This document shows, in pieces, positions 1 through 20,037 of a stretch of 64,000 bases of DNA (the stretch's first letter is position 1; the number at the start of each line of letters is the position of its first letter). Under the pieces are notes generated by a model. The model saw only the letters and a list, made by a program, of their open reading frames with translations, was not told the DNA's origin and did no database searches. The position numbers were made by a program, and so were the translations under genes. Source of the stretch: Clostridiales bacterium (GTDB taxonomy: Bacteria > Bacillota > Clostridia > Lachnospirales > CAG-274); assembly GCA_021200955.1 (NCBI GenBank), contig JAJQFU010000111.1, positions 214-64,213 of the forward strand, read 5' to 3'.

Positions 1-386
1 CTTGATGTGCTTCACGCATCACCGCTTGGGGCGTATGCCGTAGTAATCTGTTTTTTGTAATATCATTTTTTATCAAGCACTAAAATCCTGAAATCTTTGC
101 GGTGTCAAAGATGAATATAAGAAATTTTACACATTTAACGCTTATGAGCTATATTTTATTATAATATATAGATAATATATATTAAAAAATGCTTGAAAAT
201 GTGTCAAATGTGTAAAATTATAATTAATTGACTGCTGCCATTATCTGTTTCAAAATAAGTGCTGTGTAATAGATGTTTTCAGTAAAGTAGGAATGTTATT
301 TTTTATATAAGGTTTTAAGACTATACTCTTGAACTTTAAACTTTTGATATTTCCTGCTTTATATTGCCCAATGTAAGATTACCAAC

Positions 387-752
387 CTACTCTTTTATTA
401 ATAATTTATCAATGGAGGCTCTCTCTTTAAAAGTACATTCATCTATTATATTAAATAGTGACCAACTATTGCTATCAAAATGATAAACAATAAAATCATT
501 TTCTCCGCAGTCGACAACAGGGATAATTTTTAATTTTATAAAATCTACGTGTAAATCATTCTCTGCTTCTGCAATCTCGGAAAAGGATAATATTCTGCTT
601 CCATCGTCAAAGAAGACACTCTTATCAGAGTATGAAATAATTTGTTTTATGGTTTCGCAAATTTTATATTCATATATATCCTCAAGTTTGCGTACCCTTT
701 CAGTTGAAATTTTGCACTTGCCGATTTCCTTCAAATACTCTTTTTTAGTCAT
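387..752 (-). CDS. SUKH/SMI1-KNR4-like immunity protein, likely cognate to the upstream AHH nuclease
   Basis: 121-aa ORF that begins 1 nt after the stop of the nuclease ORF. It is a small acidic protein with the segment IIPVVDCGENDFIVYHF..W.LFN, which resembles SUKH-superfamily immunity proteins. The assignment rests on motif recall and on its position after a toxin gene. Confidence 0.5.
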   Translation of the reverse strand: MTKKEYLKEIGKCKISTERVRKLEDIYEYKICETIKQIISYSDKSVFFDDGSRILSFSEIAEAENDLHVDFIKLKIIPVVDCGENDFIVYHFDSNSWSLFNIIDECTFKERASIDKLLIKE

Positions 753-753
753 T

Positions 754-1320
754 TTATCTGCCTCCTAACATTGTATCCAGCTTGCTGTAAGGGCTGTCAG
801 GTGAATGTATTCCCTGTTTATCATAATGCTCATTTGCATGCAGAGGGGTTATATTGTCAACCTCATTTTTACCGCCCATACTCAAAGGCTGAATATGATG
901 TGCATCATAATCTCCTCCGGCTTGTCTTATAATCTTTCCGTTTGCAGAATACACATCTTCTTCATACTTGGGCCACTCCTGTCCGTTTTTAGTTTCCCAT
1001 TGGCTTTTCAAATCGCCTTTTATATCGTTAAATTCTTCACGTTTTTCGGCAACTTCCTCAGGTGATAATTTTTCCAAATCAGATGCTTCAATAGGATTTT
1101 CGGGAAGAGTTTCGGGACAATCGGAGCGATTTTGCAAATCATCATAATAGTCATTTAAAACTTCCTTTAAATCGTTCTCCTGAACATCTGCAGGAGATTC
1201 ACCGTAATCATCGGAAAACATTTTTTCAAATGTATCCTTTGCTTCGGGATCTACTTCTATTTTAGACTCCGGAGTTTCAATATTTTCCAAACCTTCTAAT
1301 GCCAAACCTTTGCCTAACAT
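754..1320 (-). CDS. AHH-family HNH/EndoVII-fold nuclease (toxin-type effector) without a trafficking domain
   Basis: The C-terminus GGDYDAHHIQPLSMGGKNEVDNITPLHANEH carries the AHH motif plus downstream N/H residues of the HNH fold. The acidic N-terminal ~120 aa has no signal peptide and no LXG, WXG or Rhs-type region. An RBS-like AAGGGGG lies ~10 nt upstream of the ATG. The gene starts 16 nt after the ATPase stop. Confidence 0.65.
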   Translation of the reverse strand: MLGKGLALEGLENIETPESKIEVDPEAKDTFEKMFSDDYGESPADVQENDLKEVLNDYYDDLQNRSDCPETLPENPIEASDLEKLSPEEVAEKREEFNDIKGDLKSQWETKNGQEWPKYEEDVYSANGKIIRQAGGDYDAHHIQPLSMGGKNEVDNITPLHANEHYDKQGIHSPDSPYSKLDTMLGGR

Positions 1321-1336
1321 TTATGCCTTACCCCCT

Positions 1337-4300
1337 TTATTTTTTTATATATTTAAAGAACTCATTATATAGTTCAGATGACAAATTATTTTTCTTGGCC
1401 TCGTTGAACTCGTTTACTATTATACCGAGTATTTTATCTCTTTCTGTCTTTTCAAGCTGTGAAATATCCGGCTCCAAAGCCTCAAGCATTAAATCATACC
1501 ATAAGCCCATATTTTTTCTTTCGGCGTTTGATAATCCCAAAGCAGTTTCCGAATTGATAACACCATAGATGATTTTGCTTCTGAGATTTTTGATTTTATC
1601 AATGCTTTCCTCTTTTATAAACCTAAAAATATTTGCCTTTGTTTCTGCCGTAAGCTGCATTTTGTAAACAGAATTTTCGAGCTTTTTGATCTCATTTTTA
1701 TCAAAACCGAACTTTTCATATGCAGGCTGAAGTATATATTTAACTAATTTTGCTTTTTGTTTATTATCGTAATCTTTATCTGAAATACGGGGTGAATACT
1801 TAAAACCTTCACCGTTTTCATTCTTAAATTCTTTTACCTTGCAAAGGACAGGCTCAAGCCAGTTATTTTGATAAACTGCCGCAACACCTGTTTCCAGTTT
1901 GGAAAGCTCTGTTATCTGGTCATCATTAAGGGCTGCAGCCTTACCCACAAGCTCTCTGTCGGAGAGGTCGGGGAGTCTTAATATAATCTTGGTATTAGTA
2001 TTTCTGATAACAGACATATCAAGAAGTCCCGGCGACTGGTCGGCTATTATAAAGCCCTCGCCGTAGGTTCTCATTTCGGCTATGGAATTAGCAAGCATTT
2101 CAACAGATTTGCCTAAAAGATTTGAGGTTTCGGAGGACTGTTCTGTTGAGGTATGTTTGAGAAGATTGTGAGCTTCTTCAAGAACGGTCAAGTGTTTAAG
2201 CTGACTGTTGCTGTTGGTTCTTGCTGACATTCTGTATTCCTGCATCTTCATAACAAGCAGACCCATTATAAGAGATTTTGTTTCCGTTGAGCCTACACGG
2301 CTTAAATCTATGATAACATTTTCATCGTATAATTCTTCGTCTGAAAGCTCATTGGCGGTAAAAATCTGACTGTACAAGCCGTTTGTCAAGGACTTAACTC
2401 TTGTACACAAAGCACCTGTATAATCTCCCTTGCTGTCTGAGGAATATTTAGACTCTTCCATAACAACATTAATCTGCTGTAAAACATCAACAAAACCGGG
2501 ATAAAGCTTAACGCCCTCATCACTTATATATTTACATTCGGATTGGTTTAAATCCCAGCCCGCCTTAATATAAGCTCTTTCAACAGCATCCTTCAAAACT
2601 GCCGGCATAGCCGCATACATAGGCCAGCAGACATTAAATATTTCAATAAGCCTGTCTATGTGTTCCAAAACGTGAACATCTTCGGGAAAACTGAAAGGAT
2701 TTATCCTTAGCAAATCGGTCTTTTTGTTGTTTGTGCCGTAAACACTGACATCATTTCTGCCGCCGAAAACGTCTTTATACTCGCCTTTTGCAGGCTCTAC
2801 TACAAGAAACTTTACGCCCTGTTTATCGGCTTCATTTAATATATGATAAACGGCATTTGACTTACCCGAACCTGTTGAGCCTGTAATAAAGGTATGAGAA
2901 GCAAGTCCCTCAATATTCAAATCCACATTTGAACCCGTTTCAACCTGACCCATATGATAAACTTTGCCGAGATTTATTTCTCTTGAATCCTCAGCAGCTT
3001 TAAGTCCTTTATCCGTTACATTTCTGCCGAATTCAGCGTGCTCAATTACGGGAAGTCCGTAAACGGAACGAGTAGGCAGACCTAAATGCAAAGGCAGTTC
3101 CATACCGCTGACAACTGTTCCGGCAGTATAGGCTATAAAATTCTCTCCTGTTTTTATATTATCTGTAAGGGGCATAGCAAATATTGGATGAACAAATCTT
3201 TTCAAATATTCTTTTATAGCAGAAATTTTAGCATTATTTGTGTTTGCTTTTTCTTCTTCTGCCTCATCTTTGCCTTTGTAATTTATATAATTCCATGTAT
3301 TAATTGCTCCGCTTTCTACGGAAGAACCTTCGCCTATCATTAAAGCCCTGTATGTATTGGCAGCCAAAAGACTTGTTTCTTGTTTAGCCGCTAAAAAATA
3401 AGCTCCGCAGCTGTAAGCACCGTAGTCCTCGCCTTCCTGTGTTCTTTTAAGCTGTTCTTCAATACGTTTAAGCATTTCCTGAATAGGCTTATTTGTATTT
3501 TCAATTTGAAGGGTTTTGCCGGTTCCGGTTGTATCTGTTGTTCCTTTTGTTTCGGTTCTGGTTTTGCTTTTGGTATCTATTTTGGTTTTCCCTTCGGAGT
3601 CGGTATCGGCTTTTCCCTTGTTTACTGCTCCGAACATACCGAGGTTTTTGCCTATTGAGTTTGTAATACCGCTTGCGGTGGATACACCTCTTAAAGCTCC
3701 GCCTATAGCCCCTGCTGCCATCATTGCACCGCCCACAACAGGTACTGCAACTGACACAGCTTTTCCAATTATATTTATTGCATTTATTAAACCTTGTGAA
3801 TTTCCCGACATACCCCCTAATGCACTGCCTAATCTTGAAACACCTGTGGGAGAGGTAGTTGATGAAGAGGTTCCGGAGTTGGTTGAACCGCTGAAATTAA
3901 GTTCCATACTCCAACCGGAGCTGTTTGTGTGAGCCTGTGTAGAATTTGTTCCCTCTGAAACGGAGTTGGAAATTCCTTCGCTTAAGCTTTCCATAACAGC
4001 TTTACTTTCGTTTTCGTTATAGGACCATATACTTTTTCCGAAAGAGGAAAGAGTACTGTATAAACTTTCATAACCGCCTCTTACCTCAGCCAGTTCATTC
4101 ACTGAAATAGGCTCGGCAATAAATACGGCTGTATAAGAGTTCCCCTTCATAGTGTCAATAAATCTTTCGATTCCCTGAATAAAAGATTTGTTTTCTGTTT
4201 TTGACTTATCCCTTATAGATGCAACACAGGATACGGAAGAAATATTTTTAACATGATCTCCGAATATTTCGTCAATAGTATTTTTAGCCGATATGTTTTC

Positions 4301-4726
4301 AGTTTTTGTGCCGGGAAAGTTGCTGTTAATACCGTTTTTAAGAGTATTAAAAGAGGTTCTCAGGTTTAGCTTGTCTGTGCTGCTGTAGCCTTGATTTCTT
4401 ACACCTATGTATATACCTATCGGAGAATTATTTGTCGGTGCATCAACTATAACAGCGAGATTACATCCTAAAAGCATACTTGAATGATAAACAGTAGCAA
4501 GCTTTTGGAATATATCTTCTCCCTTTTTACAAGTCAATTCTTCAAGCTTAAAGAAACGCAGACAATTATCAGCTGCTTCGTCTTTTAAACTTTCGGACGG
4601 AGATATAACGGGATACTTGTCCAACTCCGTAAGATACCTCTTATATACGGTATGCTCGGCTAAAGCCAAGCTTTTTGTCAGTTCCGTATAATTTCTTATA
4701 TCTATATCATTTGCCATATATTTCAC
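1337..4726 (-). CDS. giant HerA/DUF87-like (FtsK-HerA superfamily) P-loop ATPase with an N-terminal low-complexity and glycine-zipper insert
   Basis: Walker A is FITGSTGSGKSN (about nt 2856-2885). Walker B-like is HLTVLEEAHNLL. It has DUF87/HerA-like blocks LVVEPAKGEY and FIIADQSPGLLD..VIRNTNTKIILRLPD. The N-terminal ~550 aa is of unknown fold, with an S/T/G-rich region and a hydrophobic segment AVSVAVPVVGGAMMAAGAIGGALRGV. Confidence 0.7.
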   Translation of the reverse strand: MKYMANDIDIRNYTELTKSLALAEHTVYKRYLTELDKYPVISPSESLKDEAADNCLRFFKLEELTCKKGEDIFQKLATVYHSSMLLGCNLAVIVDAPTNNSPIGIYIGVRNQGYSSTDKLNLRTSFNTLKNGINSNFPGTKTENISAKNTIDEIFGDHVKNISSVSCVASIRDKSKTENKSFIQGIERFIDTMKGNSYTAVFIAEPISVNELAEVRGGYESLYSTLSSFGKSIWSYNENESKAVMESLSEGISNSVSEGTNSTQAHTNSSGWSMELNFSGSTNSGTSSSTTSPTGVSRLGSALGGMSGNSQGLINAINIIGKAVSVAVPVVGGAMMAAGAIGGALRGVSTASGITNSIGKNLGMFGAVNKGKADTDSEGKTKIDTKSKTRTETKGTTDTTGTGKTLQIENTNKPIQEMLKRIEEQLKRTQEGEDYGAYSCGAYFLAAKQETSLLAANTYRALMIGEGSSVESGAINTWNYINYKGKDEAEEEKANTNNAKISAIKEYLKRFVHPIFAMPLTDNIKTGENFIAYTAGTVVSGMELPLHLGLPTRSVYGLPVIEHAEFGRNVTDKGLKAAEDSREINLGKVYHMGQVETGSNVDLNIEGLASHTFITGSTGSGKSNAVYHILNEADKQGVKFLVVEPAKGEYKDVFGGRNDVSVYGTNNKKTDLLRINPFSFPEDVHVLEHIDRLIEIFNVCWPMYAAMPAVLKDAVERAYIKAGWDLNQSECKYISDEGVKLYPGFVDVLQQINVVMEESKYSSDSKGDYTGALCTRVKSLTNGLYSQIFTANELSDEELYDENVIIDLSRVGSTETKSLIMGLLVMKMQEYRMSARTNSNSQLKHLTVLEEAHNLLKHTSTEQSSETSNLLGKSVEMLANSIAEMRTYGEGFIIADQSPGLLDMSVIRNTNTKIILRLPDLSDRELVGKAAALNDDQITELSKLETGVAAVYQNNWLEPVLCKVKEFKNENGEGFKYSPRISDKDYDNKQKAKLVKYILQPAYEKFGFDKNEIKKLENSVYKMQLTAETKANIFRFIKEESIDKIKNLRSKIIYGVINSETALGLSNAERKNMGLWYDLMLEALEPDISQLEKTERDKILGIIVNEFNEAKKNNLSSELYNEFFKYIKK

Positions 4727-4745
4727 CCTCTAAAATTATATAAAA

Positions 4746-6650
4746 TTATTCTCCGTAAAGAATCCTTTTTGCTCCCTGATGTCCTTGTTCGGCTGCCAGT
4801 TTAAGCCATTTTTGAGCTTCCGTTCGGTTTTCTTTTACTAGATAACAGTATCCCAAACTGTATTGAGCGTAAGCGTTTCCCTGTTCAGCTGCTTTTCGAT
4901 ACCATTTTGCCGCCTCATCATAATTTAATTCATGGCCGCTGTACTTTGCGTCATAGTAATAATCTGCTAAATTACACTGGGCATACATATTTCCCTGTTC
5001 AGCCGCTTTTCTGAACCATTCCGAAGCTTTTTTATAATTTTGCGTAATACCTAAACCATCTCTACAACAAATACCGACATAGTTTTGAGCAGAGGCGTGA
5101 CCTTGAACAGCTGCTTCCCTAAAACGTGAGTAAGCCTGTTTATAATCCTTTTTTACTCCCTTACCTAAATAATAACAAAGTCCCAAATTATATTGAGCGG
5201 AAATATGTCCTTGATTTGCTGCCCTAAAATACCAATTTGCAGCTTCTTCAAGGTTTTTCTGCTTAACTCCTTTAGCCGTTTCATAACAAAGCCCAAGCAT
5301 ATATTGAGCTTCGGTAATTCCCTGTTCGGCTGCTATTCTGAAGCAGTTTAATGCTTCTCTGTAGTTTTGTTCTATGCCTCTGCCGTAATAATAGCACTGC
5401 CCTAAAAAATATCTTGCAGCGGCATCTTTTTTCTTGGCAGCCCTTTTAAACCACTTAACGGCTTCTTCATAATTTTGTCCAACACCATGTCCGTCATAAT
5501 AGCATAGTCCCAAAGCACGTTGAGAAAAAACATTTCCCTGTTCAGCCGCAGATAAAAATAATTTTGCGGCTTCGCTATAATCTTGCTCTACTCCGTTTCC
5601 TAACATATAACAGTTTCCCAAATTGTTTTGAGCATCGGCAAATCCCTGTTTAGCTGCCAATTTATACCATTTAACCGCTTCTCTCCAATTCTGCTTAACT
5701 CCGCAGTCACCGTTTGCATAGAAAACACCGAGATTATACTGAGCCTTGACATAACCTTGCTGCGCAGCTTCTTTAAACCATTTTATGGCATCTTTTTTGT
5801 CCTGCTTTTCATTCTGTTTGGCATTGTATTCCCATACTGAATGTGAGTTTGGATTTTCGCCGTTTTGAAGCATTACTGCCAGTTTGTATTGTGCCTCGGC
5901 AAAGCCTTGCTCTGCAGATTTAAGATACCATTTATAGGCTTCGGACAAATCCTTTTTTGTTCCTTTGCCCTCGTAATAATACAAGCCCATTTTAAACTCT
6001 GCTTCCGCATTTCCGGTTTCAACAGCTTCTTTTAAATAAGAAAATGCCTTGCTGTAGTTTACTACTCCGTTTAAAGCATCATAATAAAATTCAAACATTC
6101 TTATTTTAGCCAGTATATTTCCTTTGTCTGCGGCGGCTTCAAAATACGAAAAGGCTTTTGAAATTGCCAAGTCTCTGTCTTCATTAATATCGTTGATTTT
6201 TCCGTTATAAAAATCTAAATAATATTCTCCTGTCTTATATGAAGCCTTGGCATCTCCGTCTTTGGCAGCTTTAGAATAAAAGTTAAGAGCGTTTTCATTG
6301 GAACCCTTGTGTTCAGCTTTTTTTGCTTTGTCAAGGTTTATGCTTACGGCTTCTTCCTTTGATATTTCATCGGCATGGTTTTCAAAACCAAGCTCATTGA
6401 TACACTGTAAAAAAACATCTTTATTTTCTTCAGAGCCCTGAAAATCAAAGAAGATAGAAGAATTGTAATCATCTGCAAAATTTCTTATTTCTTCAACTAA
6501 GCCCCTCCAGCCGTCTCTGCCGTTTGAAGGAACAAACCACTCACTGACAGGTTTATCCTCAATGGCATAAATATTATCCATTTCCATATCATCAACCGTA
6601 ATTGATAAATAATCCTCATTGTATTTAATTTCAACTCTGATTTGTTCCAT
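4746..6650 (-). CDS. Sel1-like repeat (SLR) protein with a unique ~110-aa N-terminal domain
   Basis: About 14 tandem ~36-aa repeats follow the pattern A.KW(Y/F).(K/R)AAEQG...AQ..LG.CY..G.GV.Q(N/D)Y.EA. The first ~110 aa are non-repetitive. The gene lies 19 nt upstream of the ATPase gene. Confidence 0.85.
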   Translation of the reverse strand: MEQIRVEIKYNEDYLSITVDDMEMDNIYAIEDKPVSEWFVPSNGRDGWRGLVEEIRNFADDYNSSIFFDFQGSEENKDVFLQCINELGFENHADEISKEEAVSINLDKAKKAEHKGSNENALNFYSKAAKDGDAKASYKTGEYYLDFYNGKINDINEDRDLAISKAFSYFEAAADKGNILAKIRMFEFYYDALNGVVNYSKAFSYLKEAVETGNAEAEFKMGLYYYEGKGTKKDLSEAYKWYLKSAEQGFAEAQYKLAVMLQNGENPNSHSVWEYNAKQNEKQDKKDAIKWFKEAAQQGYVKAQYNLGVFYANGDCGVKQNWREAVKWYKLAAKQGFADAQNNLGNCYMLGNGVEQDYSEAAKLFLSAAEQGNVFSQRALGLCYYDGHGVGQNYEEAVKWFKRAAKKKDAAARYFLGQCYYYGRGIEQNYREALNCFRIAAEQGITEAQYMLGLCYETAKGVKQKNLEEAANWYFRAANQGHISAQYNLGLCYYLGKGVKKDYKQAYSRFREAAVQGHASAQNYVGICCRDGLGITQNYKKASEWFRKAAEQGNMYAQCNLADYYYDAKYSGHELNYDEAAKWYRKAAEQGNAYAQYSLGYCYLVKENRTEAQKWLKLAAEQGHQGAKRILYGE

Positions 6651-6662
6651 TTTTTAGCCTCC

Positions 6663-7622
6663 TTATATATATTTAATGTTTTCTATATTATCTCCCTGAC
6701 TCCGAAGCCACATATCAATACTCTTGCCGAAAACTTCGGCGGTGAAAGTGGGACCGGATTCATCTTGAGAGATTATTCTTGCAGTAGGCAGTCTGTCCAA
6801 AACCGATTCTATGGAATCACCGGTGTATTTAAAGGTGATTTTTTGGAGCTTGCCGCCGTACATAAACTGAATACGCTTTCGAAATTCGCCTTCTTCAAAC
6901 CTGTCTTTGTATGGAATATGGAAGGTTTCGTTAAGGATTTTCAACTTTTGTATACGGTCTATACGGTAGATAGTGGGGAAGGAGTCATTTATGACATCGA
7001 AGTCTTTCTTGACCTCTTCATCATCTATAAAGGCTGTCAGATAGAAATAGTATTCTGAAAACATAATCGCCAGCGGCTTAAGCTTACGTTTGACAATAGT
7101 TTTGTCTTTGGTTCGGAGGTAGTCTATTTCTATATATTTGGTTTTCCTTATTGCTTGACCCAACTCCCACATTATATCTATAAATACCTTGCCATGATGC
7201 GGCTCAATATAGTGAAACTCCTCATTGCTTATCAAATCCCTAACAAGCCTTTGATTTTCTTTGGGAACACACATTTCTATGAGCTTATCAATCATATTCT
7301 GCATCTCAGGCTTGGTAAAGGCTCTGCTGTCCAAAAGTATTTTACAGATTGCCAAAATTTCACTGTTGGACAGTTTGGAATTGTAAACTCTTTCAAGATA
7401 GTAGCCTTTGGCCTTGCGGTCATAAACTATATTGTCAAAGGAGCCGTAACGGCTGTTGGTACTGATATAATTTCTTATTTCATCAATATCACGCTGAATG
7501 GTCTTTTCACTGACTCCGAAGCGGATTGCTGTCTCTCTTTTGTTTATGATTTCGCCATCCATAAAACGCTTGTACATTTCAAGTATCCTGCTTAATCTGT
7601 TTGTAATTTCGTTGTCAGCCAT
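6663..7622 (-). CDS. WYL-domain transcriptional regulator (N-terminal HTH plus WYL)
   Basis: The N-terminal segment RETAIRFGVSEKTIQRDIDEIR resembles a DeoR/HTH_11-type helix-turn-helix. The central segment IEIDYLRTKDKTIVRKLKPLAIMFSEYYFYLTAF matches the WYL-domain pattern. It is the first gene of the five-gene operon, with a 12-nt gap to the Sel1 gene. Confidence 0.75.
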   Translation of the reverse strand: MADNEITNRLSRILEMYKRFMDGEIINKRETAIRFGVSEKTIQRDIDEIRNYISTNSRYGSFDNIVYDRKAKGYYLERVYNSKLSNSEILAICKILLDSRAFTKPEMQNMIDKLIEMCVPKENQRLVRDLISNEEFHYIEPHHGKVFIDIMWELGQAIRKTKYIEIDYLRTKDKTIVKRKLKPLAIMFSEYYFYLTAFIDDEEVKKDFDVINDSFPTIYRIDRIQKLKILNETFHIPYKDRFEEGEFRKRIQFMYGGKLQKITFKYTGDSIESVLDRLPTARIISQDESGPTFTAEVFGKSIDMWLRSQGDNIENIKYI

Positions 7623-7642
7623 TTTTCTTCACCTCTGACTCT

Positions 7643-7715
7643 ATTATAACAATTTGCATAGACACCCTTATGTCCCTTTGAAGAAATAATTTATTTTTGG
7701 TAAAAATTATTTCTT
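7643..7715 (-). promoter_or_regulatory. candidate promoter and operator of the WYL operon
   Basis: On the minus strand an extended -10 TGTTATAAT (7643-7651) lies ~21 nt upstream of the ATG. A perfect 12-bp AT-rich inverted repeat, AAGAAATAATTT-N11-AAATTATTTCTT (7681-7715), sits just upstream of it. Confidence 0.35.
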
Positions 7716-7808
7716 GCCGAAACGTATACTTTGTGGTATACAAATTTACCAAAGGGCTTTTATGATGATTTTTTTGATGAATTGCTATAAAACCGTTGAT
7801 TTTTGAGC

Positions 7809-7869
7809 AAAAAAATAGTATACTTTAGACAAAGCAGAAAATTCTTTTTTTGTTTGTCTTAAAGTATAC
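7809..7869 (-). terminator. rho-independent terminator after the recombinase gene
   Basis: A 16-bp stem (GTATACTTTAAGACAAA / TTTGTCTAAAGTATAC, with one bulge) is followed on the minus strand by TATTTTTTT. It lies directly after the stop at 7871. Confidence 0.6.
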
Positions 7870-7870
7870 C

Positions 7871-8479
7871 TTATGAAAAATTTGTGTGCATCTTTTCTAT
7901 TTCAGCCATTATTCGATAATAGGAGCTTATGCTGCAGCCGATTATTTTTGTGGCTTCACTGAAAGAAAGCTTATTGTCTTTTACTTTTTCGTAAATGTCT
8001 ATGTAGTATTCGGCATTGTAGACTTTGGATCTGCCGAACTTGACACCTTTTGATTTTGCAACGGCTATGCCTTCTGCTTGCCGCTGCCTTATATTTTCTC
8101 TTTCGTTTTCGGCAACAAAGCTGAGAATCTGTAAGACAATATCGCTTATGAATGTACCGAACAGGTCTTTGTTTTTGGTTGTGTCAAGCAAAGGCATGTC
8201 TAAAACAACTATATCGGCATTTTTCTTGTATGTAATAATTCGCCACTGCTCAATGATTTCACTGTAATTCCTGCCCAGTCTGTCAATGCTCTTGATTACC
8301 ATAATATCATTTTTTCGCAGCTTGCTTACAAGCTTTTTATAATTTGCCCTATCAAAATCCTTTCCGCTTTGCTTGTCCGCAAAAATATTTTTGTCTTTAA
8401 CTCCGTATGTATTTAAAGCAACAATCTGCCTGTCTTCGTTTTGTTCCTTAGACGAAACCCTGACATAGCCGTAAAGCAT
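7871..8479 (-). CDS. small serine recombinase (resolvase/invertase family)
   Basis: MLYGYVRVSSKEQNEDRQ carries the catalytic-Ser motif and IKSIDRLGRN is also present. The C-terminus is HTH-like. I moved the start to the ATG at 8477-8479, which is preceded by AAGGAAGG. The longer TTG-start ORF would overlap a terminator hairpin. Confidence 0.85.
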   Translation of the reverse strand: MLYGYVRVSSKEQNEDRQIVALNTYGVKDKNIFADKQSGKDFDRANYKKLVSKLRKNDIMVIKSIDRLGRNYSEIIEQWRIITYKKNADIVVLDMPLLDTTKNKDLFGTFISDIVLQILSFVAENERENIRQRQAEGIAVAKSKGVKFGRSKVYNAEYYIDIYEKVKDNKLSFSEATKIIGCSISSYYRIMAEIEKMHTNFS

Positions 8480-8528
8480 AAAAACACCTTCCTTCTTATG
8501 TTGTAAATTAATTTTAACATTAAAAATA

Positions 8529-8570
8529 GACACAAATACCAAATAAATTTTTTAATTCGGTATTTGTGTC
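8529..8570 (-). terminator. hairpin terminator downstream of the DUF4143 ATPase gene
   Basis: A perfect 12-bp inverted repeat GACACAAATACC / GGTATTTGTGTC has an 18-nt loop. A T-rich run follows on the minus strand. Confidence 0.45.
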
Positions 8571-8645
8571 TTTACTTATTCTTATAGATAATATATAAGT
8601 CAAAAATGTTCTTTTACGATAATATGGCTATGAGTTAATTATGAT

Positions 8646-9938
8646 TTATATCAGAAATGTCGCATACAAGGGTACGGAAATAACATCATCTGTTTTTCCG
8701 AAATTTTTAGTTGAAATTCTCAGAGCAAAGTCGGGAGAATATTTCTGTGTGAAAAGGTTAAGACTTCGGGAGCGGACGTGTTCTCCTTTTTTTACCTCTA
8801 TGCCGTAAATTTTATCGTCTTTTTGCAGAACGAAATCAAGCTCAGCCTGTGAATTTGTTCTTGTCCAATAATACAGAGGATAGCCTTTTGCGGCAAATTG
8901 CTGTGCTATATAGTTTTCGGTTACTGCTCCCATAAATATATTTGATGTGCCTGTGAGAATTGTGTTTACGGGCATTTTGGATTTGTTTACAAGCAATCCC
9001 ACATCGGACATATATATTTTGAAAGCGGTTTGGTCTGCATAAACGGCAAGGGGCTGAATTCCTTGGTCGATTCTTTGACATTCCAGTATAACACCGGCTT
9101 GTTTAAGCCATTCTATGGAAGCTCCGAAGATAGTTGAGGAACCGCCTTTTTGCACTACCTTATATTGGAATTTCTTGTTATCCTTTGCAAGCTGTGCCGG
9201 AATTGAGTTGTAACAGGCTCTTATTTTAACTGCTTCGGTATTGGTCGCATATTTTGACATATCTGCAGTATAGCTGTCTAAAATATCGTTTTGTACAAGA
9301 CCGGCATCAATGTATGAATTTGTTTCTATAAAGCTCTTAACGGCTTCGGGCATTCCTCCTACAATAAGATAGTCACGGTAAAGATTTAATGCCTTATTAT
9401 GGAGAGAATCATTCATAGGCTTTGACGCAGCATAGCAGTCATAAATTTCGTCACACAAAAAGTTGTTTTCTGTTGCCCAAAGAAATTCTTCAAAATCAAG
9501 AGGGAAAAGCTGATAAATATTAACCTTTCCCACAGGAAAAGAAGCCGCCTTTCTGTTTATGGCAACACCTAACAGACTTCCTGCGGCGGCAATATGATAT
9601 TCGGGTGTTTCTTCACAAAAATATTTAAGCGAGGTAACGGCTCGTTCGCAAGCTTGAATTTCGTCAAAAATAATCAGTGTTTCATCGGGTAAAATACGCT
9701 GACCGGCTTCGGCTTCGAGATATTTAATCAGCTTGGAAGGAGATATGTTGTCATCGAAAAATGAAGCCGCTGTGCCATTGCTCTCAAAATTGATATAGAC
9801 AGTGTTTTTATAGTTTTCCCTACCAAACTGCCTGAGAATATAGGTCTTTCCTGTCTGTCTTGCTCCGTTTAAAATCAAAGGCTTTCTGTTTGGACTGTCC
9901 TTCCACAACAGAAGTTTTTCCGTTATTTTTCTTTTCAT
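8646..9938 (-). CDS. AAA-family ATPase with a DUF4143-type C-terminal domain
   Basis: Walker A is LNGARQTGKTY and Walker B is LIIFDEIQ. The overall ~430-aa architecture is typical of the AAA_14 plus DUF4143 family. Confidence 0.8.
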   Translation of the reverse strand: MKRKITEKLLLWKDSPNRKPLILNGARQTGKTYILRQFGRENYKNTVYINFESNGTAASFFDDNISPSKLIKYLEAEAGQRILPDETLIIFDEIQACERAVTSLKYFCEETPEYHIAAAGSLLGVAINRKAASFPVGKVNIYQLFPLDFEEFLWATENNFLCDEIYDCYAASKPMNDSLHNKALNLYRDYLIVGGMPEAVKSFIETNSYIDAGLVQNDILDSYTADMSKYATNTEAVKIRACYNSIPAQLAKDNKKFQYKVVQKGGSSTIFGASIEWLKQAGVILECQRIDQGIQPLAVYADQTAFKIYMSDVGLLVNKSKMPVNTILTGTSNIFMGAVTENYIAQQFAAKGYPLYYWTRTNSQAELDFVLQKDDKIYGIEVKKGEHVRSRSLNLFTQKYSPDFALRISTKNFGKTDDVISVPLYATFLI

Positions 9939-10025
9939 ATCTTCACCTCCGTCTGTTGATATTATATCACCATTATCAGAGATAAGTCAATAAAAATCAT
10001 AGAATATTATATTTTATTTGAGTTA

Positions 10026-10349
10026 TTATTCGTTCCTTGCCTCATATAGCAAGATTCCTTTTTTATATACTTCATTTTCAATCGAAGATATATTTTTACG
10101 GCTTTCAAATCTGTTTTCGCTGCCTACAATAATATCAACAGGGTGTTTTTTAATATTGCGTATGCTCTTATATGCCCTTGCGGTTTCCTCGGCAATATCA
10201 TTTGTTTCATTATTTACAACGATATAAAAATCCAAATCACTTTCCTCCGTATTGGTTTGGTTTGCAAAAGAACCGAAAAGATAAACTTTTACAGGCTTCA
10301 GCGTATTAACAAAACAGGTTTTAATATCTTCTATTTCCTTTATTGGCAT
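10026..10349 (-). CDS. nucleotidyltransferase-domain protein (MNT-like), solitary
   Basis: LFGSFANQTNTEESDLDFYIVV matches the GS-x9-DxD minimal nucleotidyltransferase motif. No HEPN-like partner ORF lies on either side. Confidence 0.7.
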   Translation of the reverse strand: MPIKEIEDIKTCFVNTLKPVKVYLFGSFANQTNTEESDLDFYIVVNNETNDIAEETARAYKSIRNIKKHPVDIIVGSENRFESRKNISSIENEVYKKGILLYEARNE

Positions 10350-10640
10350 ATAATCACCACCATCTTATTTTATTTGATAATAACTCTGCATAATTTTTAT
10401 ATGCAGTATTTTATAACATTGGAGAGGATTTCTCTAATATACGGATTTAGTCAAATAAACATCATCTCTTATACCTTAATGTTATCACAAAGCAAATTAC
10501 TAATCAATCAAAAAAATGCAGAAATATGACCGTTTTAAGTGTTAATGAAAATTTAGATAAAAAAGAATTAGATTTTTTGTGAAAAAATATTGCACGAAAA
10601 ATATTGCAATGGAGGCGTAACTGTGGTAACATATAAACGT

Positions 10641-10649
10641 GGGGGGGGG
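10641..10649. repeat. G9 homopolymer tract in the 5' region of the AAA_21 ATPase gene
   Basis: Nine consecutive G lie 39 nt upstream of the ATG at 10688, in an otherwise AT-rich intergenic region. Confidence 0.9.
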
Positions 10650-10687
10650 TAGACTGTAACAAAAATCAGAGAGGGAGGTTTGATGAA

Positions 10688-11962
10688 ATGCTTATTGAAG
10701 TAAGAATAAAAAACTGCTTTTCATTTTATGATAAGGTTACTTTTTCTATGAAAGCGGATATGCGAAACAAAAAGTTTGCTTCAAACGTATATAGAGAAAA
10801 CAATTTCAATATTCTTAAGACATCGGGAATTTACGGAGCCAACAATGCCGGAAAGACCTGTCTTGTGAAGTGTATCAGATCAATAAAGAATGCTTTGCTG
10901 AATAGAAATATTGGAGTACAATGTAATATTTTCCACGAGAAAAGCATATGTGAGTTAGGAATATCTTTTTTATCTGATGGTCGTGAATATTCATATGATT
11001 TTTGGTATGACTGTAACAAAAAGGAATATCCTTATGAAAAGTTTTCGGAAATAAAAAAAGACGGCTATAATAATGAATCAGAGGTAAAGTGGCTGTTGAA
11101 GGATAATATAAAATCTCAATATTATTATAAAGACAGCAGTGAAAAAAGAATTGCGGATATGATTCCTATGATAGCTAACAACAGCTTGCTTATATATATG
11201 ATGGATGTTAGCAAGTTTGAGCTTTTGGCTGAGATGAAAAAAATCGTTACCGAATTTGCATCTAAAATCGACATTGTTAGTATGTATAATATACCCATAA
11301 AAAAGACTATAGATTTAATGAAGAACAAAAACAATCTGAAAAACAAGGTAGATGACTTCATTAGGAATGCAGATATTTATATGGATAATTTTGAATATAT
11401 AGGTGACGATAAACTCTTTTTGGCTGTTGACAGTAAAATTGATGAAAAAGAGATTGATGAAAAGGTTCTTGACATTCCGGAGCAGATTGTGGACCAGCTT
11501 AGGCTTGTGTCTGTATATAAGGGTATTCCTGTTTCTTCTATGTTTTATGATTCTACCGGAACAAAGAAAATTATAGCCCTTGCGAGCTATGTAATTGAAA
11601 GCTTGGAGCAGGGAAGAATCTTGATTGTAGACGAATTAGACAGCAGTATTCATTTTAAATTGACAAGAGCTGTTGTGGCTATGTTTAATAATGAGCTTAA
11701 TATTAATGCCCAGCTGATATTTACCGTTCATGATATTAATTTGATGGATTGTAAAAAGTTATTCAGAAAAGAGCAGATATGGTTTGTCCACAAGGATGAA
11801 GAGGGTGTATATCTTTATTCACTGGCGGAGTTTACCGCTAATGACGGAGTACGTGACACAACGGATATAAAAGAAAAATATAGAAGGGGAGTGTTGGGGG
11901 CGGTTCCTAATCCCGATTTGATAAAGACATTGTTGGCTATCAGAGGAAATAAATCTGAGTAA
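10688..11962 (+). CDS. AAA_21/ABC-type ATPase (abortive-infection-like), orphan
   Basis: Walker A is GANNAGKTC. The distal Walker B and signature region is ILIVDELDSSIHFKL...IFTVHD. An RBS GAGGGAGG lies upstream. No nuclease partner gene is adjacent. Confidence 0.7.
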   Translation: MLIEVRIKNCFSFYDKVTFSMKADMRNKKFASNVYRENNFNILKTSGIYGANNAGKTCLVKCIRSIKNALLNRNIGVQCNIFHEKSICELGISFLSDGREYSYDFWYDCNKKEYPYEKFSEIKKDGYNNESEVKWLLKDNIKSQYYYKDSSEKRIADMIPMIANNSLLIYMMDVSKFELLAEMKKIVTEFASKIDIVSMYNIPIKKTIDLMKNKNNLKNKVDDFIRNADIYMDNFEYIGDDKLFLAVDSKIDEKEIDEKVLDIPEQIVDQLRLVSVYKGIPVSSMFYDSTGTKKIIALASYVIESLEQGRILIVDELDSSIHFKLTRAVVAMFNNELNINAQLIFTVHDINLMDCKKLFRKEQIWFVHKDEEGVYLYSLAEFTANDGVRDTTDIKEKYRRGVLGAVPNPDLIKTLLAIRGNKSE

Positions 11963-12013
11963 CAGATAGCCTTATGTATTTTCAAGATATTGAAAACCAA
12001 ATTAAGCTATTAA

Positions 12014-12042
12014 TTTAGGGCGAGGTATCTACTCGCCCTAAA
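12014..12042. terminator. bidirectional hairpin terminator between convergent genes
   Basis: TTTAGGGCGAG-GTATCTA-CTCGCCCTAAA lies between the stops at 11962 (+) and 12059 (-). Confidence 0.6.
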
Positions 12043-12058
12043 TATATCTATTATTATG

Positions 12059-13741: not shown

Positions 13742-14020
13742 TCCCGGTTAAAATCAAATACGAATCATCTCTTATATCTTAATGTTACCACAAAGCAAAT
13801 GACTAATCAAGCAAAAAAATACACTGCTTTGCGGCAAAATAAAAGGGCATCTGAATGCCGTTTTGAGTGCCGTTACAGTGCCGTTATTGCCGTTGTAATG
13901 CCGTTGAAATTTTTAAAAATGAAGCAAAATCCCTACATTTTTATACCGAAAAACACCAAAAACTACCTAAAAATGACCGTTTTTAACATTGAAAAAAGAT
14001 ATAGAAGGCTTCGGGACGGA

Positions 14021-14063
<43 letters not shown>

Positions 14064-14070
14064 TTCAAAA

Positions 14071-14099
14071 AGTCCTGTAAATAAGCGGTTTACAGGACT
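14071..14099 (+). terminator. rho-independent terminator after the tRNA fragment
   Basis: AGTCCTGTAAA-TAAGCGG-TTTACAGGACT is followed by TTTT. Confidence 0.7.
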
Positions 14100-14426
14100 T
14101 TTACAATTTTTGGAAACCTCGAAAATAACGGAATTGGGAACAGTTTTGGGAACACTTTCTTTTAAATTGCTCCCAATGCTTCAAATTTAGCTAAATTAAT
14201 AAAGTATTTTGGGAGAAATTATACAGCGGCACAAGCTTTAATTTGAACTTGGCCGCTGTGATTTTTTCTTTGATATATTTTTACGCTAATAAGAAATTAC
14301 AAATAAACGATTTTCTATTATAAATGCTTTCGTTCATGTCGCTGTAATTGTCTTTAGCTTCTCGAGATATTTAAAACTAACTGCTGCCTCGTTTATCAAA
14401 ATGAAGGTAAAATAAGTTTATATTTA

Positions 14427-14762
14427 TTACTGTCTGCATTTCAAGCTGTTTCCCCACAGAGCAAGTTCTGATAAAATGGGAATCAGAGAACGTACCGAAT
14501 CGGTTATTTCATATTCAACCCGAATAGGAACCTCCATATATTCGCTTCTTTTTACAAGTCCATCCTGTTCGAGCTCTTTTAATGACTTGGCAAGCATTGT
14601 GTTGGAGATGCCTCCCATTTTTCGTTTGAGATCATTATATCTGGTTGCGCCGTCATTTGACAGTGAACACAAAATAGAAATTTTCCATCTTCCGCCTATG
14701 GCATTCATAGCCTTTTGCAAAGGACAAAGCGTTGTACAAGGGCAAATATGTTCTTTCGCCAT
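14427..14762 (-). CDS. HxlR-family winged-helix transcriptional regulator
   Basis: CPLQKAMNAIGGRWKISIL...GISNTMLAKSLKELEQDGLVKR is a typical HxlR signature. The gene is divergent from the flavodoxin-like gene. Confidence 0.85.
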   Translation of the reverse strand: MAKEHICPCTTLCPLQKAMNAIGGRWKISILCSLSNDGATRYNDLKRKMGGISNTMLAKSLKELEQDGLVKRSEYMEVPIRVEYEITDSVRSLIPILSELALWGNSLKCRQ

Positions 14763-14929
14763 TTTATTTCCTCCTAAATAAGTTTTTTGTTACTTACTCC
14801 GCAAAAATTGCGTAGTTGACATAAATATATCTCACTATTATAATAGTATTATAGCAGATACCAAATTAAGAGTAAAGCATTTTTTAGGAGTAAAAGCTAA
14901 ATACAATATTAATATTGGAGGAGATTACT

Positions 14930-20036: not shown

Positions 20037-20037
20037 T

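Follow-up and report, generated by a model that had tools for sequence, protein, structure and literature searches.

The locus raises the question of what is done by a five-gene operon that joins a transcriptional regulator, a repeat protein, a very large ATPase, a nuclease and an immunity-like protein. In the window, meaning the whole stretch of 64,000 nucleotides that was analysed, the operon consists of five minus-strand open reading frames in the same direction with intergenic gaps of 12, 19, 16 and 1 nt; recomputation returned the coordinates (Table 1) and gaps exactly as the initial annotation had given them. The promoter-like region proposed there was also found: the extended -10-like element TGTTATAAT is followed by a GAGGTG ribosome-binding site and then by the ATG of the WYL gene at 7622. 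This element was not listed by a promoter consensus scan because a good -35 is missing. The inverted repeat upstream is a candidate operator. None of the five genes is assigned to a named system by Pfam, NCBIfam or PADLOC v2.0.0, as had been expected of this combination, and no entry describing the five-gene system was found in PADLOC, NCBIfam or the literature searched. The operon is best explained as a single conflict module, self-contained and under WYL regulation. A nuclease defence that is gated by the WYL protein and buffered by the immunity protein is favoured over ATPase-driven toxin export, at a probability of roughly 45%. Both models, already outlined as an immunity-buffered abortive nuclease and an ATPase-driven export route, are compatible with the evidence.

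Table 1. Positions of the operon's genes, domains and sequence elements in the window.
Feature	Position	Strand	Basis or remark
Inverted repeat, 12-nt perfect arms AAGAAATAATTT N11 AAATTATTTCTT	7681..7715	.	upstream of WYL gene
Extended -10-like element TGTTATAAT	7641..7649	-	read directly off the sequence
HTH-WYL transcriptional regulator, 319 aa	6663..7622	-	Pfam WYL, PADLOC WYL, weak HTH
Adaptor protein, 634 aa: novel ~95-aa N-domain, then ~14 Sel1 repeats	4746..6650	-	Pfam Sel1
System-specific N-domain, residues 1-105 of the Sel1 protein	6336..6650	-	HMM and hhalign homology
Large HerA/VirB4-like P-loop ATPase	1337..4726	-	1129 aa from GTG 4726; 1126 aa from ATG 4717 (NCBI start)
Insertion in N-terminal half of ATPase: two Ser/Thr-ladder arms around a Gly/Ala/Val/Pro-rich hydrophobic stretch	3515..4015	-	homologue sampling, AF2
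HerA/VirB4-type ATPase domain, residues ~580-965	1823..2980	-	Pfam DUF87, PDB profiles, Foldseek
Fast-evolving helical C-terminal tail of ATPase, residues ~980-1126	1340..1780	-	identity, co-variation
Toxin, 188 aa: N-terminal leader motif (ENIETPES...EAKDTFEKMFSDDYGE), acidic linker, C-terminal HNH-fold nuclease	754..1320	-	
HNH beta-beta-alpha-metal catalytic motif DYDAHHIQPLSMGGKNEVDNITPLHANEHYDKQGIH	805..912	-	invariant positions in subfamily alignment A6
SUKH-fold immunity protein, 121 aa	387..752	-	relatives' Pfam matches and AF2 structure matches

The leading gene was confirmed as an HTH-WYL regulator by matches to Pfam WYL (E=1.9e-7), to the PADLOC WYL model (E=1.5e-18) and, weakly, to HTH_11/DeoR in the Pfam search. 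Its N-terminal HTH, its WYL domain and its place at the head of the operon are those of BrxR- and CapW-type regulators, and it is predicted to regulate the genes behind it. WYL regulators are best known beside defence systems (BrxR, CapW). Of the 58 related loci with enough sequence, 40 have a homologue of this gene (cluster c2) upstream. To our knowledge no secretion system is under WYL control, a point against the export model.

The second protein matches Pfam Sel1 at E=3.6e-95 with 10 scoring repeats; 14 'AA.QG' repeat centres were counted by eye, of which a regular expression caught 8, in agreement with the roughly 14 repeats described initially. The N-domain, described as unique, indeed has no Pfam match. 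Across 1.84 billion proteins it turned up in 143 representative clusters, in almost every case at the N-terminus, and it is carried by every Sel1 protein adjacent to an ATPase. Its homology extends to the N-terminus of ~765-aa dynamin-like GTPases encoded at related loci (HMM E=3e-6 and 2e-5; hhalign probability 93%, P=2.7e-7, compared with P=0.08-0.68 for controls), and each Sel1 protein and each large dynamin of the type A and type B loci has the domain. These comparisons suggest a previously unnamed, new domain of about 95 aa. The Sel1 component itself, although present here, is not universal, as most relatives have dynamin-like GTPases with the same N-domain instead; upstream modules comprise either Sel1 proteins or paired dynamin-like GTPases with a small membrane protein, and type B loci encode tail-anchored or glycine-zipper partner proteins. 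The dynamin pairs are weakly LeoA/LeoBC-like (1e-14), and a two-gene LeoA/LeoBC-type dynamin system has been shown experimentally to be anti-phage (bioRxiv 10.1101/2022.05.11.491447). Membership in Eleos (LeoA/LeoBC) was rejected for the window operon, which lacks any Dynamin_N protein; dynamins occur only in its type B and type C relatives. The likeness of those relatives to Eleos and to ETEC LeoABC lies in their pair or more of Leo-like GTPases, whereas the two-gene system and LeoABC are without ATPase, toxin and immunity genes, and the large dynamin of the related loci, unlike Leo dynamins, bears the extra N-domain seen in the Sel1 proteins.

The giant HerA/DUF87-like ATPase with Walker A and B motifs that had been recognised in the third gene was confirmed. 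Its central domain matches Pfam DUF87/HerA (E=3.4e-13, residues 591-824), the Walker A (GSTGSGKS) and Walker B (VLEEAH) motifs are invariant in 45 homologues, a PDB profile search returned HerA matches only, and the best Foldseek match is HerA 4d2i (E=1.4e-15). Foldseek also matched SIR2-HerA, VirB4 and DndH-C, with the highest target TM-scores (0.71-0.77) for the VirB4 C-domain. The AF2 model contains a single ATPase domain; a Pfam FtsK_SpoIIIE match (21.2 bits, under the cut-off of 24) covers the Walker A region alone. Mean pairwise identity across loci is 68% in the ATPase domain and 19% in the C-tail. A hydrophobic segment at residues ~305-345 was present in all 12 sampled homologues with a poorly conserved sequence; in AF2 the insertion that carries it has a pLDDT below 50, with long strands at 250-266 and 368-384. 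The segment is probably a membrane-inserting tip, and it is absent from the ATPase homologue on an E. coli plasmid.

Among solved structures, the ATPase domain is closest to the anti-phage complexes SIR2-HerA/Nezha and HerA-DUF4297 and to archaeal HerA-NurA, with which this operon has in common the principle of a hexameric HerA platform combined with an effector, often a nuclease. The window ATPase differs in being twice as long, with an N-terminal module of ~580 aa that bears the Ser/Thr-rich insertion and hydrophobic tip and with a variable tail of ~150 aa, and the effectors here are polymorphic-toxin nucleases with dedicated immunity proteins. Placement among HerA-effector defence systems was rejected, as the ATPase scores far below the NCBIfam cut-offs (HerA_antiphage, 49 bits against 800; HerA_antiphage_2, 31 bits against 850), no SIR2, DUF4297 or NurA is adjacent, and SIR2 and DUF4297 are absent among the families of the 75 downstream genes. 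PADLOC HerA matches were partial (E=5e-20). The best PADLOC match, mad8 (1.3e-21), covers the ATPase domain only and no other operon protein matches mad models, so that MADS (mad1-8) was also rejected.

The fourth gene had been annotated as an AHH (HNH-fold) nuclease; the fold held and the family name did not. The protein falls just short of the Pfam HNH cut-off (E=3e-4, 21.3 bits vs 21.4), and its subfamily has the invariant motif DYDAHHIxPLxxGGxNxxxNITPLxAxxHYDKQGxH. The HH...N...N...H...H positions of HNH/EndoVII nucleases are invariant in alignment A6, from which catalysis is predicted. Pfam AHH (PF14412) gave no match to the window nuclease at E<=0.1, nor was it among the families matched at E<=0.01 by 75 downstream toxins, five subfamily members included. 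The letters 'AHH' are present, yet on sequence grounds only generic HNH/EndoVII membership is supported. The HNH motif aligns to the HHIIPLESGGAN motif of the Rhs toxin 8cm0 and to a Cas8f-HNH fusion.

The last protein has no Pfam match of its own, and SMI1_KNR4 was matched by 31 of its 54 relatives, which are at 45-68% identity. Its AF2 model (pLDDT 94.4) has Syd 3ffv, SMI1/KNR4 3d5p and Knr4 as top structural matches (TM 0.58-0.65); hhalign against a local SUKH cluster gave only P=0.0047. The matches of the relatives and of the model agree with the SUKH-like identity first suggested, and the protein has the SUKH fold. It is always paired with the c14 toxin class.

The combination recurs well beyond this genome, as the undescribed-system reading had required. 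Members of the ATPase family were found in at least 589 species genomes. They are common in Clostridia of the human and animal gut (Lachnospiraceae, Roseburia, Blautia, Anaerostipes, Lachnoanaerobaculum and others) and extend to spirochaetes, Negativicutes, dairy plasmids of lactococci and a plasmid of ETEC. Complete copies were found in Clostridia, Brachyspira, Dialister, a Lactococcus cremoris dairy plasmid and an E. coli plasmid, the ETEC copy being of the dynamin type. A co-directional gene follows the ATPase within 150 nt, often with a 1-nt overlap, in 72 of the 76 loci with enough downstream DNA, and the tight ATPase-toxin-immunity coupling is kept across ~50% sequence divergence. The genes just downstream (n=75) matched Colicin-DNase/WHH (32), Endonuclea_NS_2 (19), LHH (8) and HNH (2) in Pfam; recognisable effectors are almost all nucleases, mostly DNase-type, and about 12 have no recognised family. 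Second downstream genes (n=69) matched SUKH (22), DUF6985 (13), YezG-like (6) and PoNi (1), with additional immunity-like genes in loci L033, L066, L076 and L084. Comparison of the loci thus shows a conserved core of predicted N-domain adaptor, ATPase, leader-bearing nuclease and immunity protein. With neither a profile placement nor a lack of co-occurrence to refute it, the interpretation as an undescribed conflict system is supported.

A HerA-NurA-like machine for DNA end processing or repair, in which the nuclease would be a translocase-fed subunit and the small downstream protein a regulatory one, might be suggested by an ATPase domain closest to HerA, by partners that are nearly all nucleases and by the WYL regulators PafBC and DriD, which control DNA-damage responses. 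Non-homologous nucleases and matching inhibitors are, however, swapped between close relatives, which is unexpected for a housekeeping complex, and the distribution is patchy, including plasmids, with a near-identical copy in just 1 of 5426 complete E. coli genomes (by megablast, which misses copies below ~85% identity). We consider this explanation very improbable.

The variable C-terminal toxin, constant N-terminal region and immunity gene directly downstream are those of polymorphic toxins. Immunity proteins of the SUKH, YezG, DUF6985 and PoNi types with WHH, LHH or EndoNS_2 toxins are a hallmark of interbacterial polymorphic toxin systems and not of known defence (PMC3113570, PMC3482391), and these classes were counted against a defence outcome. 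The routes listed for polymorphic toxins do not include a neighbourhood of HerA-like ATPase, Sel1 and dynamin proteins (PMC3482391). A recognised trafficking domain or secretion neighbourhood was not found: neither a signal peptide nor WXG100, LXG or any further known trafficking domain occurs in the window proteins or the 75 downstream toxins.

Which leader motif a toxin carries goes with the upstream module and with the C-tail of the ATPase rather than with the class of nuclease. FADSPLG is restricted to dynamin+c6 loci (13/28), KFDxLM is found in 12 of 16 type C loci and KEIKPE in 6 of 12 type A loci, and every locus type contains each nuclease class. The C-tail co-varies with the N-terminal 70 aa of the toxin (partial Mantel r=0.46; 0 of 999 permutations as high), with r=0.08 for the nuclease domain. 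The co-variation of leader with adaptor and with tail argues for the toxin as an ATPase client. Compared with locus L001, the window DNA is 95-99% identical from ~1926 downward and 62-90% identical upstream, and the two toxin proteins are 100% identical; a cassette of tail, toxin and immunity gene, 98-99% identical as DNA, was recently exchanged between these relatives. Another locus (L091) has an orphan cassette of ATPase-tail fragment, toxin and SUKH gene. Together, the alignments point to a three-block recombination architecture of ATPase core, tail plus leader, and nuclease plus immunity protein.

These features can also be read as toxin export for interbacterial antagonism, which we regard as possible but doubtful. 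A membrane-anchored ATPase acting like EssC, VirD4 or VirB4 would use the Sel1/dynamin adaptor and its C-tail to recognise the leader, would remove the immunity protein and would move the DNase across or out of the membrane; the dynamin-containing relatives may use vesicles or membrane fusion, and the immunity protein would shield producer and kin, making this a previously unrecognised secretion route of Clostridia. The cassettes are of the polymorphic-toxin type, in that the leader is constant while nuclease tips are swapped along with their cognate immunity genes. In the PDB, the window toxin is closest in sequence to the Rhs-family toxin domain 8cm0. The captured L001 and orphan L091 cassettes fit a pattern selected by interbacterial competition, and the extra immunity-like genes were also counted for export. 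The conserved hydrophobic tip, tail-anchored or glycine-zipper partners and dynamins suit membrane translocation at least equally well, and toxin N-parts that are acidic and probably disordered are as expected of a threading leader. T4SS and T7SS are powered by FtsK/HerA/VirB4 ATPases (PMC3113570), and the VirB4 C-domain is structurally close to the window ATPase domain. No conserved channel or cell-wall component was found, however, among window proteins, toxins or flanks, and a separate membrane protein is missing from the window variant. Known export systems have cell-wall, NADase and pore-forming toxins among their substrates, none of which was recognised in the 75 downstream genes, and the toxins are small and without receptor or import domains. 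The system is also unchanged in monoderm and diderm hosts, with an E. coli ATPase lacking the tip. The stronger version, a new secretion-system class of anaerobic Bacillota with membrane-tipped ATPase, Sel1/dynamin adaptors, leader recognition, immunity stripping and DNase delivery to competitors, which would include dynamin-driven membrane remodelling in most variants, we consider unlikely.

The nearest secretion parallel is T7SSb (EssC; YeeF-YezG, EsaD-EsaG), which also sets an FtsK/HerA-superfamily ATPase beside polymorphic nuclease toxins whose N-terminal recognition region is constant and whose C-terminal DNase tips are swapped; SUKH or YezG-type immunity genes come next, and their products need to be removed from the toxin. 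The variable C-terminus of EssC is matched to its substrates, and by analogy the tail-leader co-variation may reflect a similar match. The window ATPase nevertheless has a single HerA/VirB4-type P-loop domain and no FHA domains, EsaA, EssA and EssB are missing, the leader is a short linear motif, and the Sel1/dynamin adaptors with their new N-domain and the WYL regulator have no place in T7SSb. T7SS (T7SSa/b and variants c-j) is defined by an EssC/EccC-type ATPase with three FtsK/SpoIIIE domains, WXG100 and LXG (PMC11217815). Membership was rejected given one P-loop domain (~580-965) in place of three and no WXG100 or LXG in the window proteins, the 75 toxins or the 25 commonest of 146 flanking families.

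In the favoured nuclease defence, the SUKH protein would neutralise the DNase from its synthesis onward. The Sel1 repeats would bind the toxin leader peptide and the N-domain would dock the adaptor onto the ATPase, a membrane-associated enzyme of hexameric type that would engage the leader, partly via its variable C-tail, and use ATP to pull the nuclease off its immunity protein. An infection or DNA-damage signal would relieve the WYL repressor, and the freed nuclease would destroy DNA at the membrane-proximal machine, giving abortive-infection or anti-invader defence with an intracellular outcome. The upstream WYL genes, nuclease effectors, LeoA/LeoBC-like dynamins and HerA defence complexes as closest solved relatives were counted for this outcome, as were the very different envelopes and plasmids of hosts with complete copies. 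The safety catch would be a polymorphic-toxin-type immunity protein, in a scheme otherwise parallel to PARIS and the solved HerA-effector complexes. In PARIS, the ABC ATPase AriA holds the nuclease AriB; there is no immunity protein and the protein families are unrelated to those of this operon, so that the likeness, drawn from general knowledge, is one of function, an ATPase assembly controlling release of a nuclease effector. Colicin and pyocin DNase operons likewise co-express an HNH or colicin-DNase-type nuclease with a tight-binding immunity protein and have an unstructured toxin N-terminus with short linear motifs, and induction through a stress-responsive repressor is plausible for both. 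Here, in contrast, receptor-binding and translocation domains and a lysis gene are lacking, and a giant ATPase and an adaptor are obligatory neighbours.

If defence is correct, this would be the first system in which a nuclease released by an ATPase has a classical immunity protein for its safety catch; if export is, it would be a new secretion route in a phylum where T7SS-type toxin delivery alone is known. Either way, polymorphic toxin-immunity cassettes are joined with HerA, dynamin and WYL parts of phage defence, fields that have so far been separate. The proposed adaptor domain, leader-peptide code and recombination architecture of the operon family are directly testable, and Lactococcus cremoris and E. 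coli are tractable hosts with natural copies.

The surroundings of the operon differ from the island first described. The tRNA-fMet fragment given as its boundary was not recovered, since neither ARAGORN over the whole window nor Rfam at E<=1 over 1-16000 found any tRNA or tRNA fragment. The adjacent serine recombinase (Resolvase E=3e-29) and neighbouring NTPases are both present. A selfish addiction or stabilisation cassette might be proposed from such recombinases, also found in the Lactococcus plasmid, together with plasmid copies, nearby IS elements and variable flanks; the nuclease and immunity protein would be a toxin-antitoxin-like pair, and the ATPase and adaptor would handle element DNA in partition, transfer or exclusion, HerA/FtsK ATPases being DNA translocases. 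This is improbable, given the conserved translational coupling of ATPase, toxin and immunity genes and the co-variation of leader with adaptor and tail. Most loci, moreover, are chromosomal and without transfer genes, and we know of no SUKH-type immunity protein that acts as a labile antitoxin.

From one locus to the next the flanking genes are unrelated (146 different Pfam families among 148 proteins), and the module is therefore self-sufficient. PADLOC matches among the nearest flanking genes of 67 loci were modest in number, so that defence-island association is not general, a point against the defence outcome. On the Lactococcus cremoris plasmid an Abi gene lies ~6 kb from the operon, with the serine recombinase adjacent. 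In the window the neighbours include AbiLi (2.5e-67), PDC-S01 (1e-173) and PDC-S09, which were counted for the defence outcome.

The five minus-strand ORFs first annotated at the start of the window, with gaps of 12, 19, 16 and 1 nt, are present (see table), and the arrangement recurs well outside this genome. ORFs were called and clustered in 87 fetched loci; in 72 of the 76 with enough downstream DNA, the ATPase gene is followed within 150 nt, in many cases overlapping by 1 nt, by a gene for a protein of 140-400 aa and then by one for a protein of 90-155 aa. The first downstream gene (n = 75) matched the overlapping Pfam models Colicin-DNase (32) and WHH (31), Endonuclea_NS_2 (19), LHH (8) and HNH (2), the remaining matches being single hits that include NERD and the RNase-toxin-like DUF4258; about a dozen toxins had no assigned domain. 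The second (n = 69) matched SUKH families (22), DUF6985 (13), YezG-like (6), DUF7832 (4) and PoNi (1), and look-ups from SUKH homologues returned to the same ATPase system. A WYL gene lies upstream in 40 of the 58 loci for which 7 kb or more of upstream DNA was available. Genes flanking the module are unrelated, their 148 proteins matching 146 different Pfam families, and no conserved extra component was found among them.

Features of the operon, regions of its ATPase (residues, AF2 model) and neighbouring features of the window
Feature	Position	Strand	Remarks
Immunity gene (SUKH fold)	387-752	minus	121 aa
Toxin gene (HNH nuclease)	754-1320	minus	188 aa
ATPase gene	1337-4726	minus	1129 aa; the NCBI protein (P0001, 'MAG: Clostridiales bacterium', 65-kb contig) has 1126 aa, its start lying 9 nt further in
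ATPase, folded N-domain	residues 10-235
ATPase, low-confidence insertion	residues 235-401
ATPase, further domain	residues 402-545
ATPase, ATPase domain proper	residues 580-965
ATPase, helical tail	residues 980-1126
Sel1 protein gene	4746-6650	minus	634 aa
WYL regulator gene	6663-7622	minus	319 aa
AAA_14/DUF4143 ATPase	8646-9938	minus	PADLOC defence candidate PDC-S01, 1e-173
Polbeta/MNT-type nucleotidyltransferase	10026-10349	minus	PDC-S09-like
Solitary AbiLi-like ABC ATPase	10688-11962	plus	PADLOC AbiLi 2.5e-67; Pfam AAA_21
Biosynthetic-looking cluster	14915-21339	plus	flavodoxin, polysaccharide pyruvyl transferase, 908-aa NAD_binding_4 + AMP-binding fusion, protein matching GMC-oxidoreductase and 4Fe-4S
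Second AAA_14/DUF4143 ATPase	22176-23450	minus	~12 kb from the first

The finding is of a real and conserved system, undescribed as far as these tools show. The initial annotation knew of no named system with this combination, and Pfam, PADLOC and NCBIfam indeed give no system-level match. [quoted passage not shown] MADS was also set aside, since mad8 is resembled by the ATPase domain only. Eleos/LeoABC does not fit either: dynamins are missing from the window, Eleos and LeoABC in turn lack ATPase, toxin and immunity genes, and the neighbours of leoCBA are unconserved, with no ATPase among them. A HerA/Sel1/dynamin route is absent from the polymorphic-toxin papers and the 2020 conflict-systems survey. 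No published description was found in searchable full text, which leaves out most subscription papers, so that one may exist. The present description is extended by dynamin-type and type C relatives, a shared N-domain, a leader code and recombination blocks.

Three upstream architectures were distinguished. Type A, that of the window, has WYL with between one and three Sel1 proteins. In type B, WYL is joined by dynamin-family GTPases of ~435 and ~765 aa and by a 170-200-aa protein whose head is helical and whose C-terminus is either a glycine-zipper 2-TM region or a single tail-anchor TM. Type C has four or five genes, among them those for three dynamin-family GTPases and for beta-helix proteins. 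Sel1 is an exchangeable adaptor and no core part of the system. The window's Sel1 protein itself was correctly recognised (Pfam Sel1 3.6e-95, ten scoring repeats); its 14 or so repeats agree with fourteen 'AA.QG' centres by count, eight of which were found by regular expression. Genes of relatives taken at one point for '800-aa unknowns' proved to be additional Sel1 proteins.

What the adaptors share is their beginning. The unique N-domain noted in the window's Sel1 protein covers ~95 aa and has no Pfam match, and every Sel1 protein adjoining the ATPase starts with it (VRVVIIYSD..I.VDG..M...AI.DKPI.EWF.PS.GRDGW.GLI.EI...F.F.G), in some cases after a further short domain. An iterated profile search with the N-domain recruits all ~765-aa dynamins, and an independent profile-profile comparison with the dynamin N-terminus gave 93% probability and P = 2.7e-7, whereas four N-termini used as controls scored P = 0.08-0.68. 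An exhaustive single-sequence phmmer search among 1.84 billion representative proteins found 143 clusters, all of the Sel1 branch, nearly always with the domain N-terminal and many with Sel1 repeats; a word-index search with the domain gave no match. The link to dynamins therefore rests on profile methods, as the single-sequence search did not reach that branch. At L002 (3874-7978), a related locus, and likewise at L003 and L004, two of three Sel1 proteins carry an extra N-terminal region of ~130 aa ('KMTISKV..IKIGSVLSGKI..G.I.VGD.I.F') before the N-domain, which by eye looks like a small beta-barrel.

The leader motifs of the toxins track the upstream module and not the nuclease class. Sel1 loci have '[FY]KEIKPE...FWDNLF', of which the window toxin carries a divergent form, ENIETPES...EAKDTFEKMFSDDYGE; dynamin loci with protein cluster c6, including that of a Lactococcus plasmid, have 'RFADSPLGK..FDKP..YDKPL', and type C loci 'EIS.EA..KFD.LMGDDDLPE'. 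Clusters c5, c8 and c16, the nuclease classes seen most often, are each found with all architectures. The N-terminal parts of the toxins are acidic: their median net charge per 100 aa is -8.8, that of background proteins -2.0, and the value for the window toxin is -21.8.

The window toxin had been called an AHH nuclease. Its HNH fold and the letters 'AHH' were borne out, whereas the Pfam AHH model is unmatched and Pfam HNH is borderline (21.3 bits against a cut-off of 21.4). The motif DYDAHHIxPLxxGGxNxxxNITPLxAxxHYDKQGxH, a beta-beta-alpha-metal HNH signature starting with AHH, is invariant in its subfamily (c14), and on this motif the protein is classed as a putative generic HNH nuclease outside Pfam AHH. 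Among solved structures, an Rhs-family toxin domain (8cm0, E = 1e-3) is nearest in sequence, and Cas8f-fused HNH domains come next. The 121-aa protein has no match of its own in Pfam, PADLOC or NCBIfam, and a local profile-profile test to SUKH was weak on its own. It has 158 relatives in a large protein collection, and SMI1_KNR4 is matched by 31 of 54 aligned relatives (45-68% identity). The AlphaFold model is confident (pLDDT 94.4). The structures most similar to it are those of Syd, a Bacteroides SMI1/KNR4 protein (TM 0.65/0.60, rmsd 2.9 A), yeast Knr4 and the RhsPI immunity protein, so that the fold confirms the protein as SUKH.

The ATPase is of the HerA/DUF87-like P-loop type expected (Pfam, residues 591-824, 3.4e-13). 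Its family comprises 1246 clusters at 90% identity, nearly all full length at 1050-1140 aa. It was found in at least 589 species-representative genomes, mostly of Clostridia and also of Brachyspira and Dialister. Five regions were recognised in the AF2 model (pLDDT 71.5). Sequence and fold searches of the PDB returned HerA, SIR2-HerA, HerA-DUF4297, VirB4 and DndH-C; every match, Foldseek's included, was to the ATPase domain and none to the N-terminal module. Averaged over pairs of loci, identity falls from 68% within the ATPase domain to 36% in the N-domain and only 19% in the tail. The insertion is rich in Ser, Thr and Gly, with alternating S/T positions conserved on both arms, and in 12 of 12 sampled homologues it has a central hydrophobic stretch, rich in Gly, Ala, Val and Pro and unconserved in sequence, which is probably a membrane-inserting tip; the homologue on an E. 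coli plasmid keeps the arms and has no hydrophobic tip. The ATPase half of the window protein also scores against NCBIfam NF033849 (1.5e-24, model positions 733-1100). This curated 'serine-rich protein' model of 1163 positions, ser_rich_anae_1, probably represents a sister family sharing the Ser-rich-plus-ATPase layout.

Comparison with the closest relative, L001 (ATPase 84% identical), points to the units in which the system is exchanged. Over the initial 2.6 kb of the ATPase gene, DNA identity is 62-90%. It rises to 95-99% at about position 1926 and stays in that range downward through the tail, the toxin gene and as much of the SUKH gene as lies within the L001 contig; the toxin proteins are 100% identical. 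This jump at ~1900-2100 indicates a recent recombination by which tail, toxin and SUKH moved as one piece. An orphan cassette was also found at L091 (7704-9357) and L092; it consists of an ATPase fragment (the last ~225 residues), a c14 toxin whose leader is of the Sel1 type, and a SUKH gene. Next to that of L091 are a 649-aa dynamin, which is unrelated, and a TnpV/large serine recombinase element. Among 73 loci, similarity of the ATPase tail co-varies with that of the first 70 toxin residues after control for ATPase core and N-domain identity (partial Mantel r 0.46, reached by 0 of 999 permutations), which fits recognition without proving it, because physical adjacency contributes to the signal. 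The corresponding r for the nuclease domain is only 0.08, and the idea that the C-tail tracks nuclease class was dropped, there being no signal after core identity control. From the break, the orphan cassette and the co-variation taken together, the unit has three blocks: ATPase core, tail with leader, and nuclease with immunity gene.

In the mechanism proposed here, the toxin leader would be bound by the Sel1 or dynamin adaptor, whose N-domain would dock on the ATPase; the latter, which belongs to a superfamily of enzymes that pass polymers through the pore of a hexamer, would then separate the toxin from its immunity protein. This separation step, running from leader through adaptor to ATPase, is the best supported part of what we infer. 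Cassette capture, the families to which the toxins and immunity proteins belong, the design of a constant leader with a variable tip and the membrane features all speak for export and interbacterial use of the toxin, which we rate as the second most likely outcome. An intracellular defence outcome is tentatively preferred, at a probability of roughly 0.45, given the WYL regulator, recognisable effectors that are almost all nucleases, portability across cell-envelope types and plasmids, and likeness to HerA-effector systems and, in relatives, to a dynamin-pair (LeoA/LeoBC-type) defence system. That the operon is an addiction module is improbable, and that it is a repair machine more improbable still; a small share of the probability goes to none of these four readings.

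The defence genes flanking the operon in the window also favour defence. The serine recombinase beside it (Resolvase 3e-29) and the neighbouring NTPases were recovered, the latter including an AAA-ATPase_like+PDDEXK_9 protein besides those tabulated. No HEPN partner ORF (>=60 aa) adjoins the nucleotidyltransferase on the same strand, and no AbiLii/RloB partner is apparent after the AbiLi-like gene, with no co-directional ORF >=60 aa downstream. Enrichment of the flanks in defence genes is not general: only a few of the proteins flanking the module match PADLOC models, a count that covers the flanks of these loci and not whole genomes. The tRNA-fMet fragment said to bound the island is unconfirmed, because neither ARAGORN (whole window) nor Rfam at E<=1 (1-16000) shows a tRNA or fragment; the island-like region ends at the biosynthetic-looking cluster. 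Carriage by phages was rejected, only 9 loci being found in 2.9 million viral contigs together with 2 unannotated virome contigs.

The HTH-WYL regulator gene (Pfam WYL 1.9e-7; PADLOC WYL 1.5e-18) is preceded by an extended -10-like TGTTATAAT and a GAGGTG ribosome-binding site, read from the sequence, and by a 12-nt perfect inverted repeat at 7681-7715. A generic promoter/terminator scan (44 promoter-like sites, 24 expected) was uninformative in this AT-rich DNA. Between the stop codon of the resolvase gene and the promoter of the WYL gene there are several GTATAC-containing inverted repeats (7720-7880), one of them with 24-nt arms at 7818-7869, which may represent a res site for the resolvase or else a terminator.

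Natural copies on plasmids of Lactococcus cremoris and E. coli ease follow-up. The conjugative dairy plasmid pF27B of L. cremoris (L093, NZ_CP068513) carries a complete WYL/dynamin-type copy at 40.0-50.5 kb. Genes for an Fst toxin and a small recombinase and one of the Abi family adjoin it, and three zinc-ribbon genes lie upstream in divergent orientation; the same match is present in four further plasmid records from lactococci (57,984-57,987 bp). Zinc-ribbon (DZR/Zn_Ribbon_1) proteins recur beside the dynamin-type loci L088-L090 and L093, with a 1355-aa dynamin+zinc-ribbon fusion at L090, and could be an additional accessory component. The ETEC IncI plasmid pTW10590_133 of E. coli TW10590 (L094, NZ_CP035852, 49.9-58.3 kb) holds a complete dynamin-type copy a few kb from etpB, comprising two dynamins, a tail-anchored protein, the ATPase, an HNH/EndoVII nuclease and SMI1/KNR4; of the 5426 complete E. 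coli genomes, 1 has it at near-identity (megablast, roughly >=85% identity).
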